Shown here: positions 228 to 9,444 of the stretch, piece by piece | Numbering within the stretch: the first letter of the stretch is position 1 | How the letters are laid out: every line of letters begins with the position of its first letter | Source: a virus | Lineage: Duplodnaviria; Heunggongvirae; Uroviricota; Caudoviricetes | IMG/VR virus record: IMGVR_UViG_2657245664_000010 | Length of the DNA: 18,020 nucleotides | Direction: 5' to 3' (one strand) | Notes under the pieces: generated by a model | What the model was told of the DNA's origin: nothing | Seen by the model: the letters and a program-made list of their open reading frames with translations, nothing else | Databases searched by the model: none | Made by a program: the position numbers and the translations under genes

Positions 228-971
228 TCAGATTCCCTGGTGAGTAAGAATTTTACTTTCTGAACTCCTCTGAGGGTATTGACTTGGAGAAACACCAAAA
301 TAACGTCTAAATACATAAGTAAAGTATGAGACACTGGCATAACCACAGACCTTAGCTACTTTACTAATAGGATAACAACGAGTGCTGAGTAAATATTCAG
401 CCATTTGCATCCTCTCATCAAGTATGATCTTACTGAATGATACCCCCTCTTCTTTCAATTTCCTCTTTAGTAAACTTTCGCTGAGATATAATCTTGATGA
501 TATATCCTTAAGACGCCATGGTGCAGATAAATCCGTATGAATAATCGTTTTAACTTTAGCCCCTGTGCTTTTCAAACATCCAAACAGAAATACTCCAAAT
601 TGTTTTTCAGAAGAAAATGCAGAGAGACATGTAAAAGCAATAGACTCATCAAAAATTTCTATATATTCAGCACAGTGATTAGCCCAACTAATTAATCCTT
701 TAATTAAACTGAAGTCAGCAAAGTTTATTTTTAAATAAGATGGATATTCCCTACAATCAGAAATATCCCTTAAGTTATTAGCTTTCAAATAGCGACTAAT
801 AAACTCAGCGCCAAAATCCGCCACTATCACTCTTTCAGGATATGTCAGGAAAAAATCTCTATAGCTAGAGTCGACAAGTACAGATAAACCTCTATCCAGA
901 AACACACTCTCTTTTCCGAAATAAACATCAAAGGACTCCAAAATCAATATAACTGAACATGTAGTTGCCAT
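228..971 (-). CDS. AraC/XylS-family transcriptional regulator, AppY-like
   Basis: C-terminal double helix-turn-helix typical of AraC proteins (WRLKDISSRLYLSESLLKRKLKEEGVSFSKI... and ...GYASVSYFTYVFRRYFGVSPSQY). The N-terminal CSVILILESFD block resembles DLP12 AppY from memory. Very AT-rich gene and upstream region. The ORF track starts at a GTG at 980; the ATG at 971 is the likelier start. Confidence 0.75.
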   Translation of the reverse strand: MATTCSVILILESFDVYFGKESVFLDRGLSVLVDSSYRDFFLTYPERVIVADFGAEFISRYLKANNLRDISDCREYPSYLKINFADFSLIKGLISWANHCAEYIEIFDESIAFTCLSAFSSEKQFGVFLFGCLKSTGAKVKTIIHTDLSAPWRLKDISSRLYLSESLLKRKLKEEGVSFSKIILDERMQMAEYLLSTRCYPISKVAKVCGYASVSYFTYVFRRYFGVSPSQYPQRSSESKILTHQGI

Positions 972-1699
972 ATCATCCACCCAATTTAACTGAAACCAGG
1001 ATGAAGTATATGCATATAAAGTTCACTTTGCCAAACTTCAGTATAAAAAACCACATAAAAAATAGGGTGTGATAAAAAATACCGTAAAAATAAAGCAAAG
1101 GATTATAAATTCCGTTACAGTTACAAATGATACTAAAGAAACAATTCCTTAGAAAACCTTATTTACAGCCAATAAGTAAGACACTTATATGATATCAAGT
1201 TTTCATAAAACATAACTAGGCTAAATAGCTGCGCCTAATACCGCTACACTTTTGCCAGCCCATGTTTGCCTCCGGGTATTGACCCCTTCTCTACGCAACT
1301 TCAGTTCCCACCACCAACTTTGCGGCAGCTTTGTAGGATCAATGTCTAAAAGAATAATGGTGACCGATAAGAAAACGACTGAATAACTGCAGATTTTCGC
1401 TCGAAACCTTCCTGTCAGATCCATAGCGAATCAAGTGCTGAATGTCACAGTATCGAACAGAAAACAGTGACGATCTAACCCTTCAAGAATATTCTACGAT
1501 TGTTCTGTTTAGGAAAAGCAAGGCGGGAAGTCGGGAGATAAGTCATTGATAAAGTGGCGGAGAGAGGGGGATTTGCCCCCCCGGTAGAGTTGCCCCTACT
1601 CCGGTTTTCGAGACCGGTCCAATCATCAAACGAAACATAAAATTAATTCACATTATGAGGAAAAGTATCTTTTTTGTACTTGTAAATTCAAAGGCTTAG

Positions 1700-2569
<870 letters not shown>

Positions 2570-2645
2570 GTCTTTAAGTGATAAGCATAAACCGCAGCAC
2601 GATCTTGCATACGACGTGCTACGGCTTCCGACATCTTGCTAAACG

Positions 2646-3059
2646 TTAACTGACCGAATCTGGCTGAATAGGCAGTGACTGTGTCCAGTCACCAGCCCTG
2701 ATATATGCACGTAATGATTTACGGTACTCAGTCCACTCTGTAAGTGCCGACTTCACTGCGTTCTCAGTTGTGTCAGTGTAGTCAGCATCCTGGATCTGAT
2801 CGTTCAACAAATCGATTTGAGTTGTTGCGCGAGCATACTCAGAGTTTGATATTGCCATATTTTCCGCGGCTAATTCGGCAACTGATTTTTCAATAACTGG
2901 CGCCGTGAAATTAGTACCGTCATATGTCCAGTTTATTCCTGCGGCAATGCCAGTAATATTAATGACGGTGTAATCCGGAAATAATTTTTTTGCATCGTTA
3001 TCTGAATTACAGACAACCGTATTTACGACGACATTATTTTTAATTAATGCGTAATTCAT
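2646..3059 (-). CDS. Phage tail fibre assembly (chaperone) protein, Tfa-like
   Basis: Sits immediately downstream of the glycine-rich fibre gene with a 1-nt overlap. The N-terminal MNYALIKNNVVVNTVV...WTYDG pattern and the C-terminal ...LTEWTEYRKSLRAYI... pattern are reminiscent of Tfa-type chaperones. Confidence 0.55.
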   Translation of the reverse strand: MNYALIKNNVVVNTVVCNSDNDAKKLFPDYTVINITGIAAGINWTYDGTNFTAPVIEKSVAELAAENMAISNSEYARATTQIDLLNDQIQDADYTDTTENAVKSALTEWTEYRKSLRAYIRAGDWTQSLPIQPDSVS

Positions 3060-3694
3060 TATGCAAACTCCTCAATCACGCAGATCCCAGGCGCTCCTGT
3101 TCCACCGGCTTTTAGCACTCCTGAAAAAGCGGTGTCATAAGCAGCACCTCCGCCAGCACCATATGCTTTGGCTGCAACACCATTAGCAGAACCAGCACGA
3201 CCACCTCCCCCCCAGAACGAAGCCGCACCATTACCAAATGAGTAATAACTTCCCTGCTGACCGTCACTACCATAGCCACCATGGATATTGATTAGCCCGC
3301 CAGTAGCTGTTCCATCTGCACCACCAGAACCAATTGACGGAGTGTTTACGCCGGATCCACTACCACCGCGACCGGCTGACATTCCATTAAATGTTGATGT
3401 CCCACCTGGATTATCAGCTGTTCCACCTGCTCCGATAACGACAGAAAAATCACTGATATCTTCAAGGTCAAAAATACCGATGCAGGTTGCGGCAGAGCCA
3501 CCTCCACCTCCAAACGCCGTCTGAGAAAATGATGTGGCGATGACAGAACTACCACCGCCACCTCCCCCGGTAAGAATTACCTTAATTTTCCGGGTACCCA
3601 AGCATTGTGCTGGCATTACCGATAACGTCGTTCTGCACAAAATCCGCCACGCCATCGATACTGAAACCGCTGAAGCTGTCACTGATGCAGTCAT
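3059..3694 (-). CDS. Glycine-rich tail fibre protein, C-terminal portion (5'-truncated or fused; true start uncertain)
   Basis: Long Gly/Ser/Ala-rich repeats (GGGGGGSS, GGGGGS, GGSGSG) ending ...GICVIEEFA, directly followed by Tfa. The 5' part of the ORF overlaps the upstream gpN-like ORF in another frame, which suggests a deletion junction. Confidence 0.5.
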   Translation of the reverse strand: MTASVTASAVSVSMAWRILCRTTLSVMPAQCLGTRKIKVILTGGGGGGSSVIATSFSQTAFGGGGGSAATCIGIFDLEDISDFSVVIGAGGTADNPGGTSTFNGMSAGRGGSGSGVNTPSIGSGGADGTATGGLINIHGGYGSDGQQGSYYSFGNGAASFWGGGGRAGSANGVAAKAYGAGGGAAYDTAFSGVLKAGGTGAPGICVIEEFA

Positions 3695-4124
3695 CCAGTG
3701 CAGAACAGGATGACATCAGCGTCTGCGCCGTCGCCACGCCTGATGTGGGGTAAGAGAGATCTCCCGCTTCGACAAACTTCAGGTCAAAGCGGACAATACG
3801 CCCTTCACTCTTCGATGTGCTGACCCGAACTTCCCCGTCAACACAGACTTTCAGCTCACCGTATGTCGGGTGGACAAGCGTGCCGGGACCGGGTTTATTC
3901 AGCGCGTCAATCAGGCGATCGCGCTGGTCAAAGCAGTCATCTCCCACCACATAAGCCGTGATGGACGGGCGGAAAGTGACTTTTCCCAGATCTTCGGTAT
4001 AGGGTTTGTCGCGGTTCGGATATTCGTGTGTTTCCACACGACGGCCGGTTCCCGCACTTTCTTCTTCAACCTTAAACGGCACACCTCGAAATGACGCATC
4101 CTGAAGCCTGTCTTTCCACGTCAT
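3582..4124 (-). pseudogene. Mu gpN-like DNA circulation protein, N-terminal fragment
   Basis: MTWKDRLQDASFRGVPFKVEEESAGTGRRVETHEYPNRDKPY... matches the remembered N-terminal domain of Mu N (gp43) family proteins. At about 180 aa it is much shorter than full-length members. GGAG ribosome-binding site before the ATG at 4124. Confidence 0.55.
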
Positions 4125-4133
4125 ATACACTCC

Positions 4134-4165
4134 GAAAATAAAAAAGCCACCTATTAGAAGGTGGC
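4134..4165 (-). terminator. Rho-independent terminator downstream of the AT-rich membrane-protein gene
   Basis: On the minus strand: GCCACCT-TCTAAT-AGGTGGC (7-bp stem) followed by TTTTTTATTTT. Confidence 0.65.
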
Positions 4166-4185
4166 CTTGTAATGAATTTTATTAA

Positions 4186-4716
4186 TTAGCGAGTCAGAAA
4201 CAACGAATCTTTATACTTTTGCTGTTGTTCATTTAAATACTTAGCTGTTTCATCGCTGGCAAATGGAAATATTACCGTATTTTTAGGCATGGTAATTTCT
4301 TTTTTGTCCAGCGTCAGAGTAAACATAGGAACATACTGAGCAGAGTAACGCACCGCAGAAACGAGCTCTAGTTTAGACTCTTCAATAACACTTAAATTAT
4401 CCAGGCTAACTTTCTCTTCATCTTTTTTCTTTGACGCATTTAAAGTTTTTATTACTTTATTTAATTTCTCCTGAAAATCCTCCTTAAAGTTTTCAGGATT
4501 GCCGTCGACAACAAGAATCTGTTCACCCTGATTATCTGGAAAAATAATCTTTGCACTTATCAATTTATTTTCTTTATAAACATCACCAAGTTTTATGGCT
4601 CCTCCAGATAACTGAATAATATGTTCATCTTTAAAGGAGATGTTGCCAGAGATTATGAGAGATGAAAAAATAGCCGCTGCTCCAAGAATTACACTTGCTG
4701 TGATATAGCCTTTCAT
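4186..4716 (-). CDS. Hypothetical membrane-anchored or secreted protein (AT-rich cargo gene inside the tail module)
   Basis: 176-aa ORF with a hydrophobic N-terminus (MKGYITASVILGAAAIFSSLIISG), a Lys/Glu-rich body and markedly AT-rich codon usage compared with neighbours. It has its own terminator and an AT-rich upstream region. Confidence 0.55.
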   Translation of the reverse strand: MKGYITASVILGAAAIFSSLIISGNISFKDEHIIQLSGGAIKLGDVYKENKLISAKIIFPDNQGEQILVVDGNPENFKEDFQEKLNKVIKTLNASKKKDEEKVSLDNLSVIEESKLELVSAVRYSAQYVPMFTLTLDKKEITMPKNTVIFPFASDETAKYLNEQQQKYKDSLFLTR

Positions 4717-4807
4717 TTTTCGCCTATTAACATTTTTCTAAATGTGCATTAATTCTATCACTCTATTTATGACTTACAACCAGCAATACATGTGAGGGGA
4801 ATCCTGG

Positions 4808-6640
4808 CTACCAAAATCGGGTATAGCCAACATCGTGATTTATATCAATGCCACTGGAGCGTGTTTCCGTAACCCGCATACCTGGTGGCATATTTATAAA
4901 TGATACCTTGATCTCACCATCAACTTTTGGCGCGGTAGCTTTATTAATCATGAAGGGATTCGAGCCTGTGGCATCGGAGGCGTTGTTTGCCTGAGCCGGA
5001 TCCACCGCCGGATAAGGCGTGTATCCCCGTGCCGGTATTTCCGTCCCATAAGCATCATAAGCACCCGCGCCCCACTGCGCCGAGTTAATGGTATCGACCG
5101 TGTCACCGGAACTGTCGGTAAACCATTCAATAATCGGCTTCAGCTTATCCCACATATCCTGAAACCACTTAACAACCGGTCCCCAGTTATTGATCACCAT
5201 CCCCAGCGGCGACCAGGCAAAAACTTTCTTAAGGAGTTCCCAGCCAGCCTCAAAATAAGGACCAATGGTTTCCCAGAGCTTCTTGAAATAAGGTCCGACA
5301 ACATCCCAGTTAGTGATAATTAATCCCGCAGCCAGGGCTATCGCCGTCGCAATCATGCCAATCGGCGTCATCGACATGATCCTGCTGACAATGCTGATGG
5401 CACTGCCCACGCCCATCAATCCCAGTTTCAGAATCGCAAGACCGGCAGCAAGCCCGACGACGCCGCGAATAACCCGGGGATTTTCATCCGCAAACTTCGT
5501 GAATTTCTCCCCCAACTCCCCCAGCCACTGCGTGATGTTCTTAGCGTCACCAGAAAATGCGCCGCCAATAGCCGCAAGGCCGTTAGTTGCGGTCCCCGTC
5601 ATTGCCTCCCACAGGTTGGACAGCGTACCAAGCTGAGCCTGAACACGTTTATTCAGGCTGGCCTGTTTATTCATCTTCTGCTGGATCTGATCGTAGCCAT
5701 CCTTTCCTTTATCGATTAGTGCATTGACCACCTGAAGGGTTTCGGCATCATCACCAAATATTGCCTTAAGTACACCGGTTCGCTTAACGTCGGTCAGTTT
5801 TCGCAGCTTTGCCAGTTGCCTGAACATGTTATCAAGACCGCCAAAACTCCCTTTGCCATCAGTAAAATCGAGCTGTACCCCGAGTTTCTGGCGGGCCATG
5901 ATTTTATTGACGTCCCTGATTTTCTTAACGCTTAATCCGGACTGGATAACTTTTCGCAGGGCATTACCTGCCGACTCCCCGTTCATCCCCATCTGATCCA
6001 TCATGACACTGATGGGGGCAAGACTCTGTGCAGCCTGAAGACCGTCCTTATTCACCATCTTCAGAACAGAGCTGGTTTTAGTGAAGAATGACAGCATGTT
6101 GGTATCGTCCACGCCCAGATAAAACGCCTTCTGAATTGTGTCGAACAGCCCCATCATGTCTTCTGAGGCCGTTCCGGTAGCATCCTGCATCTTTGCGGCA
6201 AACTCAGCAGCCGCTTCCGGTGTTTTTTTCAGTTGTACCGCAAGATAAGCTGTCGCTTTACCCACACCACCAAGAATGTTTTCTGCCGGGATCCCCTGAC
6301 GCACCAGCATCTGCATCATGTTCTGGAAATCAGCCGTTGTACCGGGTAGCTGGTTACCCAGGCCAATAGCCAGTTTATTGATGTCCTGAAAGCTCTTTCC
6401 AACCTCGCCGTTCGCATCCATCATGGCGACTTTCAGCCCGGTGGCGGCGTTTTCCTGATCAGCATAAGATTTCAGGGAAAGCGTCAGACCCGCTGCCAGT
6501 CCGCCACCAAGCGCCAGCCCACCCTGTGACGCTTCTTCCGCCTGGCGTTTAAATCCCCGGATTTTCTTTTGCATTTTCGACAGCGCGGGAGAAAGCCTGT
6601 CGACACCGGTGATCAACGCCTTAAGCTCAAATTCAGCCAT
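4808..6640 (-). CDS. Phage tail tape measure protein
   Basis: 610-aa protein with an alpha-helical, Ala/Gly/Leu-rich repetitive composition and a hydrophobic segment (VIRGVVGLAAGLAILKLGLMGVGSAISIV). It sits upstream of the gpN-like gene, as in Mu-type tail modules. Confidence 0.7.
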   Translation of the reverse strand: MAEFELKALITGVDRLSPALSKMQKKIRGFKRQAEEASQGGLALGGGLAAGLTLSLKSYADQENAATGLKVAMMDANGEVGKSFQDINKLAIGLGNQLPGTTADFQNMMQMLVRQGIPAENILGGVGKATAYLAVQLKKTPEAAAEFAAKMQDATGTASEDMMGLFDTIQKAFYLGVDDTNMLSFFTKTSSVLKMVNKDGLQAAQSLAPISVMMDQMGMNGESAGNALRKVIQSGLSVKKIRDVNKIMARQKLGVQLDFTDGKGSFGGLDNMFRQLAKLRKLTDVKRTGVLKAIFGDDAETLQVVNALIDKGKDGYDQIQQKMNKQASLNKRVQAQLGTLSNLWEAMTGTATNGLAAIGGAFSGDAKNITQWLGELGEKFTKFADENPRVIRGVVGLAAGLAILKLGLMGVGSAISIVSRIMSMTPIGMIATAIALAAGLIITNWDVVGPYFKKLWETIGPYFEAGWELLKKVFAWSPLGMVINNWGPVVKWFQDMWDKLKPIIEWFTDSSGDTVDTINSAQWGAGAYDAYGTEIPARGYTPYPAVDPAQANNASDATGSNPFMINKATAPKVDGEIKVSFINMPPGMRVTETRSSGIDINHDVGYTRFW

Positions 6641-6923
6641 GTGTGCGTTTCTCCTGCTCTATCCTGTTTGCCTGACTGACCAGCAAGGGAATTTCACTGA
6701 TCGGCATATTCAGCAATTCGAAGGGATTAATGCGCCAGTAGCTGGCGCAGTCAAAGAAGCGATCAGTGAGGTATTCAGCCGTCAGGCCTGGAGGAAAAAA
6801 CCAGCCACAAGCCACGCCGCTGCATTCAGGTCTGCCGGAGACATCTGGTCGACAGAGCTTTGCGGCACTTTCGCCAGCCGCACAATGTATTTCGACACCA
6901 CATGCGCCAGAAGTCTGACGGAC

Positions 6924-7355
6924 TCATCCTGATTCATCTGGTAGGGATACCACACAGCCGGGATCGACGGGCAGCAGTTCAGCCACTTCGCCAAATGCTT
7001 TCACTTTGTAGGCGTAAAAGTTTCCCCGCAGGCACAGACAGGTGACCACCAGCTCCCAGAACTCCTGCGGCGTCATATAGCCATTGGGATGCGTGGAGAT
7101 CAGCTTATGCAGACGTTCGCCAGTGGCTCTCTGCTTCAGGCTGCCGTTCAGGTGATACAGGTTGCAGGGCAACATCCCGACCGACTCCGCCAGCACCCTG
7201 ACACAGGAAAAAACCGCCGTCAGTCGCATGGCCCGCTGGCTGCTGATCTGCTTTCCGGTATAGGTGTCGTAGGACAACCCGATAGCCTCCGCCAGCTCTG
7301 CTGGCGTGGTCACCGGTGCGTCACTTTTTCGTTGAAATAATCCCGAAAAGAACAC
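6924..7355 (-). pseudogene. HK97-family portal protein, N-terminal fragment
   Basis: ...LTAVFSCVRVLAESVGMLPCNLY...GERLHKLISTHPNGYMTPQEFWELVVTCLCLRGNFYAYKV... resembles the portal N-terminal region. It is truncated after about 140 aa and begins at a GTG overlapping the HNH stop. Confidence 0.55.
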
Positions 7356-7639
7356 TATTTACCTCCGCCGACATGCGCTTTAGGGATGATGTGGTCAACA
7401 GTTTTCGCCTCACGCACCACACCAGCACGCAGACATAACTGACACAGGCCTTTGTCACGCTTCAGAATGCGCGTACGTATAACATCCCACTTAGAACCAT
7501 AACCACGCTGATGACGGGACTGTCCTGGCTTGTATTGCTTCCAGCCTTCGCTTTTGTGGCTTTCGCAATAACCTGACGGGTCAGTGGTGGTATGGCGGCA
7601 GCCGCGAACACGGCAGGCTTTTGGGGTTCGTGGGGGCAT
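7355..7639 (-). CDS. Phage HNH endonuclease (HK97 gp74-like), apparently C-terminally truncated
   Basis: CRVRGC...YCESH zinc-ribbon-like N-terminus, then CQLCLRAGVV...TVDHIIPKAHVGG, the first half of an HNH motif. The protein stops before the expected second Cys/His pair. Confidence 0.6.
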   Translation of the reverse strand: MPPRTPKACRVRGCRHTTTDPSGYCESHKSEGWKQYKPGQSRHQRGYGSKWDVIRTRILKRDKGLCQLCLRAGVVREAKTVDHIIPKAHVGGGK

Positions 7640-7778: not shown

Positions 7779-8163
7779 AATTTCCCGTTTGATTTAATGG
7801 ACACTATAGAGGGACAGAATGCCTTCCTCACTCGAATCACATCAATTAAGGAGGTTCAACATGTTTCATTCCACAAGTCATCAGGCTGTAATTATGGCAG
7901 CATCAGTTTGTGCCAAAGACCTTTTCCGCTTCACTTTGAGCCTGATTCATTTCTACCTGACCGGCTCGCCTCTATCTTTTTAATCCCCGCTTTATCCAAA
8001 TTGCATTGCCATAATGCCGACAACACACTGACATTCAAATCCAGACTACCTCCAATAGTCTGACCGTACACCTATATAGTTTTAATTTTCATCAATCCAT
8101 TTAACTATCGTTTAATTGTTGTCACATAGGATTCTGCTGTTTTTAACAATACAGGATAATAAG

Positions 8164-8457
8164 ATGAAAAAAATGTTGTTTTCTGCCGCTCTGGCAATGC
8201 TTATTACAGGATGTGCTCAACAGACGTTTACTGTTGGAAACAAACCGACAGCAGTAACACCAAAGGAAACCATCACCCATCATTTCTTCGTTTCGGGAAT
8301 TGGACAGGAGAAAACTGTTGATGCAGCCAAAATTTGTGGCGGCGCAGAAAATGTTGTTAAAACAGAAACCCAGCAAACATTCGTAAATGGATTGCTCGGT
8401 TTTATTACTTTAGGCATTTATACTCCGCTGGAAGCGCGTGTGTATTGCTCACAATAA
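8164..8457 (+). CDS. bor: Bor lipoprotein (lambda Bor / Iss family serum-resistance lipoprotein)
   Basis: MKKMLFSAALAMLITGCAQQTFTV...ITHHFFVSGIGQEKTVDAAKICGGAENVVKTETQQTFVNGLLGFITLGIYTPLEARVYCSQ is near-identical to remembered lambda Bor. Lipobox LITGC. Opposite strand to the lysis genes, as in lambda. Confidence 0.85.
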   Translation: MKKMLFSAALAMLITGCAQQTFTVGNKPTAVTPKETITHHFFVSGIGQEKTVDAAKICGGAENVVKTETQQTFVNGLLGFITLGIYTPLEARVYCSQ

Positions 8458-8463
8458 TTGCAT

Positions 8464-8489
8464 GAGTTGCCCATCGATATGGGCAGCTC
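8464..8489. terminator. Hairpin between convergent bor and Rz (possible bidirectional terminator)
   Basis: GAGTTGCCCAT-CGAT-ATGGGCAGCTC, roughly a 10-bp stem with one mismatch. No clear T-run on either side. Confidence 0.3.
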
Positions 8490-8962
8490 TATCTGCACTG
8501 CTCATTAATATACTTCTGGGTTCCTTCCAGTTGTTTTTGCATAGTGATCAGCCTCTCTCTGAGGGTGAAATAATCCCGTTCAGCGGTGTCTGCCAGTCGG
8601 GGGGAGGCTGCATTATCCACGCCGGAGGCGGTGGTGGCTTCACGCACTGACTGACAGACTGCTTTGATGTGCAACCGACGACGACCAGCGGCAACATCAT
8701 CACGCAGAGCATCATTTTCAGCTTTCGCATCAGCTAACTCCTTCGTGTATTTTGCATCGAGCGCAGCAACATCACGCTGACGCATCTGCATGTCAGTAAT
8801 TGCCGCGTTCGCCAGCTTCAGTTCTCTGGCATTTTTGTCGCGCTGGGCTTTGTAGGTAATGGCGTTATCACGGTAATGATTAACAGCCCATGACAGGCCG
8901 ACGATGATGCAGATAACCAGAGCGGAGATAATCGCGGTTACTCTGTTCATTGCTGACCCCAC
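8489..8962 (-). CDS. rzpD: Rz i-spanin (inner-membrane spanin subunit)
   Basis: N-terminal transmembrane segment ([18 protein letters not shown]), then a coiled-coil-like, charged periplasmic domain. Overlaps the endolysin stop. Contains the embedded Rz1 frame. Confidence 0.8.
8548..8730 (-). CDS. rzoD: Rz1 o-spanin (outer-membrane lipoprotein spanin subunit), embedded in Rz in another frame
   Basis: Lipobox VVVGC, followed by a proline-rich segment (PPPPPAW...PPPDW). Lies wholly inside the Rz gene, the classic Rz/Rz1 arrangement. Confidence 0.7.
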
Positions 8963-9444
8963 AAACAGATTTCACGCTCAATCTCACGACGAGTCATGAG
9001 ACCTTTCCATTGCTTACCGCCAGCATATGTCCAGCGACGTAGCTGATCACATGCGCCTTTGATATCGCCTTGGTTTATTTTGCGAAGAAGCGTCGATGTT
9101 CTGAAATTGCCAGCACCCACGTTGTAAACGAATGAGTAAAGAGCGCCGCGCATTGTTTCCGGTATATCGACTTTGATGTACGGGTTAATTTGTCTGGCGA
9201 CCGTGGCAAGGTCTTTATTCAGGAGGGCTTTGCATTCTGCTTTGGTATACGTTTTACCGAGCATGATGTCTTTTCCTGTATGCCCGTGACATACAGTCCA
9301 TACACCAACAATATCTTTGTATGGTATGTAGCTGACACCTTCCAGACCATCGTTACCACTTGGGCCAGTAATTAACACTGATGCTATAGCAATTGCTCCG
9401 CCACCAATAGCAGCAGCAACGGCTTTTCGTAATGATGGAGGCAT
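8947..9444 (-). CDS. rrrD: SAR endolysin (phage-21 R-type lysozyme)
   Basis: N-terminal Gly/Ala-rich signal-anchor-release segment ([20 protein letters not shown]), then a lysozyme-like domain. Start overlaps the holin stop. Confidence 0.85.

Follow-up and report, generated by a model that had tools for sequence, protein, structure and literature searches.

A probable deletion scar between two tail-gene remnants of a defective Escherichia coli prophage, and a motif recurring at prophage deletion joints

Remnants of two tail genes and their intact counterpart

The stretch of DNA analysed here, referred to as the window, is the IMG/VR virus record IMGVR_UViG_2657245664_000010 in its full length of 18,020 nucleotides. 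It is the right part of a multiply deleted, defective prophage of the SfV/e14 type, located in E. coli at the tRNA gene thrW beside proA, and the present work concerns a point in its tail region where the beginning of a gene related to gpN of phage Mu meets the end of a tail-fibre gene. The whole window was found with 100% identity in the chromosomes of E. coli SCU-118 (human, USA) and CPE35 (swine), both of them complete and independently sequenced. These two were the only ones of 5,426 complete E. coli genomes in which at least 80% of the window was covered. Phages of the SfV group integrate at thrW beside proA and carry e14/SfV-type morphogenesis genes together with a lambda-like half (PMC3636060). 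The positions of the features are collected in Table 1.

Table 1. Features of the window, with positions counted from its first nucleotide; L003 denotes the prophage locus of E. coli BE311
Feature	Position	Strand	Remarks
137-aa gene, intact, chaperone position	2646..3059	-	WP_001104934.1; one cassette with the glycine-rich tip
Tail-fibre gene remnant	3059..3598	-	Codons 126-304 (Gly_rich_2 distal tip) and stop 3061-3059
gpN frame continued into fibre DNA, out of frame with the fibre	3582..3594	-	Third base of codon 177, Pro-Glu-Asn, TAA
gpN-like DNA circularization / baseplate hub gene remnant	3595..4124	-	Codons 1-177 of 442; start ATG 4124-4122
Deletion joint J1	3595..3599	.	One copy of 5-bp TACCC (GGGTA on the coding strand); TACCC at both parental ends
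Spurious N-terminal extension of the 211-aa reading frame	3599..3694	-	Residues 1-32, gpN DNA in the fibre frame; fibre homology begins at residue 33
176-aa gene between tape-measure and gpN-like genes	4186..4716	-	phrog_5485 (unknown function) E 3.8e-108; no Pfam match
Tape measure gene, intact, 610 aa	4808..6640	-	PF10145 E 1.3e-26; annotated in L001 and L003
Deletion joint J2	6948..6951	.	Microhomology TACC; 6,821 bp lost; tail-assembly C-terminus joined to portal N-terminus
Deletion joint J3	7372..7373	.	CA (6 of 7 bp imperfect repeat); 2,610 bp lost
Deletion joint J4	13945..13948	.	GGTA; 9,194 bp lost, ninB to exo, including replication and immunity genes
Integrase	15399-16562
att repeat, 52 bp	16571-16622		Spans 3' part of thrW; second copy at L003 5548-5600, the other prophage end
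tRNA-Thr(CGT) thrW	16577-16652
proA	16767-18020

The gpN-like open reading frame (ORF) lies on the minus strand at 3582-4130 and codes for 182 amino acids (aa) if started from GTG, or 180 aa if the ATG at 4124 is used. Within it lies the full DNA_circ_N domain (PF07157, E 6.5e-35, residues 9-95, profile positions 2-88 of 88), and it matched the profile phrog_184, 'baseplate hub', with E 2.4e-83 over positions 2-179 of 411. Its first 177 residues are identical (177/177) to residues 1-177 of the 442-aa DNA circularization protein of BE311, WP_024180500. The gene was initially annotated as having about a third of the usual length, and the measured proportion is 40%. Proteins of the gpN type have about 410-490 aa including a C-terminal region; the ORF holds residues 1-177 only, and the part of the intact protein that matches phrog_17109 (residues 237-442) is absent from the window. 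The Prokaryotic Genome Annotation Pipeline (PGAP) likewise flagged the gene in SCU-118 as 'incomplete, missing C-terminus', along with fragments of the portal, tail-assembly, HNH and ninB genes.

The second ORF, of 211 aa, is also on the minus strand (3059-3694) and overlaps the first by 113 nt in a different frame, an overlap that the initial annotation had seen. Residues 33-208 matched Gly_rich_2 (PF21722) with E 3.2e-9 and 37.6 bits against a curated cut-off of 24.3, and residues 33-211 are identical (179/179) to residues 126-304 of the intact BE311 fibre, which is encoded by one uninterrupted ORF of 304 aa (L003 10270-11184). The remnant matched the tail-fibre C-termini phrog_863, phrog_6202 and phrog_454, and by the PHROG profiles such a glycine-rich tip belongs to long tail fibres, at their C-terminal end. 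The residues 1-125 missing from the window match fibre N-termini (phrog_1396, phrog_2617 and phrog_18834), and with them the N-terminal baseplate-attachment domain and the gene's own start codon are gone. An ATG at 3616, inside the out-of-frame gpN DNA, was taken by PGAP as the start of a coding sequence (CDS; L001 9460-10017). A sequence search of the PDB with the fibre returned nothing for the glycine-rich tip and a weak match of the N-terminal part to Mu S (5yvq, E 0.006). In RefSeq the BE311 fibre is split by PGAP into a 'StfP pseudogene, missing C-terminus' and a 'glycine-rich domain-containing protein', which is probably an artefact of the mosaic protein.

The end of the 211-aa ORF meets the start of the 137-aa ORF (2646-3059). 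The initial annotation had placed a glycine-rich fibre body directly before a tail-fibre assembly gene, tfa; the domain and its end position were borne out, while the name of the neighbour stays below threshold. It scored 17.3 bits against Caudo_TAP (PF02413), under the curated cut-off of 22.1, and matched the tail-fibre-assembly profiles phrog_136 and phrog_188 with E 8e-6 and 2.7e-4, respectively. The gene follows three different fibres, those of BE311 and of two P2-type prophages, in the place of a chaperone gene, and 'Tfa' may be kept for it as a tentative label.

The complete-looking prophage of BE311 was used as the parent reference. Its head side comprises HNH, the small and large terminase subunits, portal, protease, capsid and connectors. 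The tail genes follow in the order sheath, tube, tail-assembly protein, tape measure, the 176-aa gene, the 442-aa DNA circularization protein and the baseplate genes P-like, V, GP46, J/gp47 and YmfQ; then come the fibre, the 137-aa gene, a GIY-YIG gene and a lambda-like early region. The fibre itself is composed of an SfV-like attachment domain and the glycine-rich tip. The same layout with other fibre modules was found in H10407 (enterotoxigenic E. coli), B27 and QEC11-421, and the full gene order is also present in SfV, SfI and SfII.

When the window segment 2600-4800 was used as a query, the match in approximately 1,100 genomes began only at query base 996 (window 3595) and extended to the right. 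The left part of the segment was found, 100% identical, in BE311, F41 and K99S, where it lies about 4.85 kb from the right part. In the blastn alignment with the BE311 locus, window 1568-3599 corresponds to L003 8779-10810 (100%) and window 3595-6951 to L003 15656-19012 (99.97%). Compared with BE311, 4,850 bp (L003 10811-15660) are missing between window positions 3599 and 3600. On the coding strand the gpN parent reads ...ATG CTT GGG TA|T GTT..., the fibre parent ...CCG GGT A|CC CGG AAA..., and the window ...ATG CTT GGG TAC CCG GAA AAT TAA, so that residues 1-177 of the gpN-like product are followed by Pro-Glu-Asn. Every base of this joint, J1, comes from the two parents in the three-way alignment, with no added bases and no mobile element or recombinase site. 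Removed are gpN-like codons 178-442, fibre codons 1-125 and five baseplate genes (P-like, V, GP46, J/gp47 and YmfQ/gp48) which are present in the intact loci L002, L003, L008 and L009; the initial annotation was right that the baseplate genes between N and the fibre are missing. J1 itself is carried by two of the 5,426 genomes, its gpN flank by about 1,100. Neither ORF aligned over its full length to a complete protein, and the profile matches to PF07157 and PF21722 agree with the identities first proposed for the two remnants.

Origin of the joint J1

The region is very probably the scar of one intramolecular deletion in the defective SfV/e14-type prophage at thrW. J1 shows what is expected of a short-homology deletion, namely colinear flanks and a short direct repeat at both parental ends, of which one copy was kept. 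For random joints in this DNA, microhomology of at least 4 bp has P = 0.017, and of at least 5 bp P = 0.005, while three of the four joints in the window have at least 4 bp. Because such microhomology is improbable for random joints, the joints of the window are short-homology events. The 4,850 bp between the two TACCC copies were lost with one copy kept, probably by illegitimate short-homology end joining or by replication slippage, and not by site-specific or homologous recombination. The gpN frame now runs three codons into fibre DNA and stops, with the fibre remnant left in another frame and without a start of its own.

Three further deletions separate the window from BE311 (J2-J4, Table 1). 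J3 took away the start of the portal gene, ymfR, both terminase genes and part of the HNH gene. Together the four deletions amount to 23,475 bp, and head, terminase, baseplate, replication and immunity genes are gone; therefore no virion or tail can be made. All four are judged to be recent, because the identity to BE311 is near-perfect. Attachment domain and start codon are gone from the fibre remnant, and none of its baseplate partners is left; we infer that both remnants are non-functional pseudogenes which persist only as they have not yet been deleted. Since they lie in different frames, they are best described as two pseudogene fragments joined, and no fusion protein is encoded. The proposal of the initial annotation, an internal deletion that fused two modules, thus held for the deletion, with flanks 4,850 bp apart in BE311, but not for a fused protein. 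J1 is ordinary prophage decay, which PGAP had already half-flagged and which is now resolved to the base with the parent identified.

The glycine-rich tip and the 137-aa gene make up a cassette of about 1.2-1.3 kb, extending from about window 2592-2628 to L003 10887. Similarity of BE311 to SfV-type phages ends at fibre codon ~99 (L003 10887), and the cassette is absent from these phages. It was found with 98% nucleotide identity at the end of P2-type prophage fibres of 557 and 483 aa (L005 5055-7141 and L006 5046-6910). In these prophages, of E. coli TUM2820 and AST46, the tip and the 137-aa gene, about 1 kb together, stand in the gpH-gpG position, and TUM2820 encodes the identical WP_001104934.1 protein; unlike in the window, the fibres are complete with P2-type N-termini, and the tail clusters are apparently intact. 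A distant search of the glycine-rich module against phages gave only a 68%-identical stretch of 197 nt in Klebsiella phage fibre genes. By these comparisons the cassette is evidently a real mosaic piece of the prophage, and it looks like a receptor-binding tip and its chaperone that would be swapped as a unit. A segment of 59 bp just downstream of the GIY-YIG gene (window 2570-2628) has its matches in hundreds of genomes at the 3' end or in the flank of pinE, the relatives with this flank being those with an invertible fibre module. The match therefore suggests that an ancestor carried a Pin-invertible fibre module, which was exchanged for the glycine-rich cassette.

A cassette that is mobile, missing from SfV-type phages and 98% identical on P2-type fibres would also be in keeping with J1 having arisen by recombination between two prophages, or by import of a foreign fibre into gpN. 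This we regard as very unlikely. BE311, F41 and K99S have the cassette on an SfV-type fibre N-terminus, in the same prophage and at the same site, and the J1 flanks are 100% identical to it. The cassette was thus already on the SfV-type fibre in the BE311-type prophage, and therefore a single deletion is enough to account for all of it; the swap of the cassette preceded the J1 deletion and is independent of it.

We give next to no credence to the two ORFs being complete native genes, one for a short gpN-like and one for a short glycine-rich protein. PGAP does call a CDS of 185 aa on the glycine-rich part and splits the BE311 fibre in two. Yet the gpN ORF stops three codons after the end of identity to the 442-aa proteins, the N-terminus of the glycine-rich ORF is out-of-frame gpN DNA, the BE311 fibre is one ORF of 304 aa, PGAP itself flags the gpN piece as truncated, and the arrangement occurs in two of 5,426 genomes. 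An assembly or sequencing artefact is just as hard to credit, as the 18-kb arrangement is the same, at 100%, in the independently sequenced SCU-118 and CPE35, and no point in favour was found.

A few points weigh against reading the region as the silent scar of a deletion. The CDS called on the fibre remnant is named 'glycine-rich domain-containing protein' in CPE35; that neither remnant is expressed is a prediction from sequence; and among the 5,426 genomes no intermediate with a subset of the four deletions was found, the order and timing of the deletions being not reconstructable.

The tail genes are of a kind known from several systems. Shigella flexneri SfV, SfI and SfII resemble the parent of the window, with 97% nucleotide identity from the tape measure to the fibre N-terminus. 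Unlike the window they are complete and inducible, carry gtr serotype-conversion genes and have another fibre C-terminus and chaperone. With Mu gpN (gp43) the DNA_circ_N domain is shared, at family-level similarity only, the window copy being cut after residue 177. The Mu gene order N, baseplate genes, fibre and chaperone is that of the intact type, and the glycine-rich tip is without counterpart in Mu S. A Mu-type tail in an otherwise lambdoid/HK97-type element had been taken initially as additional mosaicism; this architecture is native to SfV/SfI/e14-type phages, and therefore adds none.

Two cryptic prophages of K-12 are comparable in their decay. In e14 (oweE, aaaE, beeE and jayE fragments) SfV-like structural genes of approximately 97-98% nucleotide identity are joined as fragments by internal deletions, as in the window. 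It differs in being inserted in icd and not in thrW, in having the portal joined to baseplate J, in the loss of the tape-measure and gpN genes, and in a fibre module of the Pin-invertible StfP/StfE type where the window has the glycine-rich tip. DLP12 shares with the window the block of lysis, Q, porin and rusA genes, and has undergone large deletions with 2-3 bp joints (exoD/peaD and aaaD/tfaD). One of these removes immunity and replication genes lying between exo and P, a loss similar to that from ninB to exo at J4. Unlike the window, DLP12 has a lambda-type (siphovirus) late region and is integrated at argU.

A motif at prophage deletion joints

Three of the four joints in the window share the 4-mer TACC/GGTA, with an a-posteriori chance of about 1.5e-4. 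Further joints were mapped in other prophages against their closest intact relatives, giving 19 joints in all. A joint was scored positive if TACC or GGTA occurred within the microhomology +/- 4 nt in at least one parent, and the 16 joints remaining once the three discovery joints were set aside formed the held-out set. GGTA/TACC was present at 12/19 joints and ranked first of 136 4-mer classes, the next classes being such as overlap with it. In the held-out set nine of 16 joints were positive against 1.39 expected (Poisson-binomial P 1.3e-6), and in the SfV/e14 type alone eight of the 13 held-out joints (P 2.4e-6).

Three joints were mapped in SHP24. At the sheath/lysis joint the parental end GCGGGTA/CCGTC is a GGTACC site (L003 19720), the joint between gpN and P4-like DNA has GCGGGTA/AAACC, and the DUF968/ymfT joint has GCGGTATCCG. 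The capsid/ymfT joint of DLI.5a (AGTTA/CCCTC) lies at the ymfT position of SHP24 with a different partner. In e14 the joint of portal beeE and baseplate jayE has the microhomology GGTA, and beeE ends at the exact nucleotide, a GGTACC site, where the portal fragment of the window ends (J2, L003 25828), with different partners. The oweE/aaaE joint of e14 has CCAGGGTA/TCCC, so that the e14 joints carry GGTA or GGT, and the rzpD/oweE-like joint of KFu022 is found at the oweE-like site of e14. The same nucleotide was thus used with different partners in three places: portal (window and e14), ymfT (SHP24 and DLI.5a) and oweE-like (e14 and KFu022). Two joints were mapped in G4/9, one of them (J/terminase) negative, and one, negative, in LR-33. 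In DLP12 compared with lambda, the exo/P joint was positive, with GGAGGTA/AAC at the break, and the terminase-to-tfa joint (A/tfa) negative; Qin was negative, with one side mappable only. The boundaries KFu022 tfa/terminase and AVS0747 yahC/head-closure were scored as motif-negative because they coincide with gene ends and have the look of borders between modules or with the host. The sites of the joints are at L011 11136-11139 and 9402-9404, L004 13068, 8328 and 18805, L007 17612, L014 12006 and L016 2377.

The motif at the joints is often extended to GGTACC or GGTATCC. Of the six GGTACC sites in the BE311 locus, three are breakpoints, i.e., in the fibre (L003 10804, window), in the sheath (19720, SHP24) and in the portal (25828, window and e14), and the deletions of the window remove or border all six. 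Four of approximately 34 breakpoint sides fall on GGTACC sites (P 1.4e-7). The pooled half-sites form the palindrome GG(G/A)-TA-(C/T)CC, and a central TA or CA is common to both parents in 13 of the 15 two-sided joints, the exceptions being SHP24-a and e14-b. The fibre-side end of J1 is on the palindrome GGGTACCC. This position, together with the recurrence of GGTA/TACC or GGTACC in relatives, suggests that the ends of J1 are probably not random and that a sequence-directed breakage would have preceded the joining.

The motif was spotted after the fact, and two of the 'held-out' joints were already known when the rule was settled. The motif is missing at three or four joints (window J3, G4/9 J/terminase and LR-33), and in lambda-type DLP12 and Qin it is at one of three only. 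All of this speaks against a directed process. The P values are to be read with the joints not fully independent, as some sites are reused, and with some parents only 90-98% identical. With these points counted, we put forward tentatively, as a possibility and not as the probable case, that J1 is one case of a sequence-directed deletion process shaping the decay of E. coli prophages. Breaks would favour GGTACC and its GGTA/TACC half-sites, the same nucleotide would be struck independently across lineages, and the agent might be a KpnI-type enzyme, a type II topoisomerase or an undescribed activity.

Two specific triggers were weighed, both of them rather unlikely when taken singly. According to the first, a putative GGTACC-specific restriction enzyme (KpnI/Eco149I-type) cut unprotected prophage DNA, and the ends were resected and joined via TA/TAC(C) microhomology. 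The use of three of the six GGTACC sites of the parent as breakpoints and the removal or bordering of all six in the window are as such an enzyme would leave them, and so is the palindrome to which the half-sites pool. Many partner sites are one-mismatch variants such as GATACC and GTTACC, and KpnI cleaves star sites of this kind. The sites of window J4 and of the DLP12 A joint differ from GGTACC by at least two mismatches, which argues against it. A GGTACC restriction-modification system did not come to light in these genomes either, though no search aimed at one was made. A literature search on KpnI star sites gave nothing usable or on point.

According to the second, which we find equally doubtful, cleavage complexes of DNA gyrase or topoisomerase IV at preferred sites provided the ends, in an illegitimate recombination of the Ikeda type. 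The consensus core for E. coli gyrase in the supplement of PMC6379681 is CGGCGGTAT-NNNN-ATACCGCCG. As far as the accessible part of that source goes, GGTA corresponds to consensus positions -5 to -2, and GGTA and TACC stand beside the scissile bonds (PMC6379681). Bacterial type II topoisomerases share the preferences -4G/-2A and +6T/+8C (PMC12324340), and in a gyrase cryo-EM structure the TA step of GTAC is at the centre of the G-segment (PMC13284261); both fit the motif, as does the flexible central TA/CA step in 13 of 15 two-sided joints. Against this, the second half-site is at background in 16 GGTA-oriented sites (+6 T 4/16, +8 C 4/16), position -6 is G where the consensus has C, and the joints are on GGTA itself, outside the predicted 4-nt stagger.

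Other mechanisms were considered and rejected. Recombination by Pin/Gin-type enzymes at pseudo-sites does not apply, since the pix sites TTCTCCCAAACC-AA-GGTTT are unlike the joint sites and the BE311-type parent is without a pin gene. An integrase-mediated deletion was discarded, as no breakpoint lies at att; the thrW-derived att core is without the motif. No joint has extra bases of the kind left by insertion sequences (IS), such as IS1 remnants. The prophage copy in X14-3 is truncated by IS1, which is a different kind of event. The end sequences, by inspection, do not fit an intron-like or RNA-level removal.

Flanking genes and significance of the deletions

Upstream of the gpN-like remnant, the 176-aa gene is untouched by the deletion. 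It is present in BE311, H10407 and B27 and absent in QEC11-421, and because of this patchy occurrence among relatives it looks like a moron. A terminator-like hairpin with a T-run follows it at 4168-4143, and the N-terminus of its product appears hydrophobic by eye. In a scan of window 2500-7500, counts of promoters and terminators were no higher than the shuffled level.

At the other side of the cassette, an AraC-family regulator (window 228-980) is found beside the GIY-YIG gene. In DLI.5a (L007 116-2792) and B27 (L008 8832-11508) a pair of a type II restriction endonuclease and a cytosine methyltransferase adjoins the GIY-YIG gene, and the prophage seems to have a slot for variable cargo at this end. 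Window 1568-1579 is an empty site where BE311 has IS421 (IS4-family) with the 12-bp target duplication GGGATTTGCCCC. The second att copy of BE311 is approximately 260-315 bp to the left of the point equivalent to window position 1. Beyond it lies a second integrase-bearing island, which therefore suggests a tandem occupation of thrW in BE311. Though every virion module is gone, all cargo and lysis genes in window 8116-11329 have stayed intact; they comprise a Bor/Iss lipoprotein, a holin-lysozyme-Rz cassette and an OmpC/NmpC-type porin (385-aa ORF; annotated 1,098 bp). DLP12 of K-12 keeps the same set of Bor/Iss, holin-lysozyme-Rz and porin.

J1 in itself matters little, being one recent decay step of an SfV-type prophage whose intact parent is extant in other strains. 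For annotation it carries a warning, as calls of a 185-211-aa 'glycine-rich domain protein' and of a 180-aa 'DNA circularization protein' are to be read as pseudogene fragments. The sole part beyond the routine is the recurrence of GGTACC/TACC at breakpoints. If deletion ends do cluster on a short palindromic motif and fall on identical nucleotides in independent lineages, a specific DNA-breaking activity would partly steer the domestication of prophages, and a mechanism other than random deletion would account for the fixed structures of e14 and other classical cryptic prophages.

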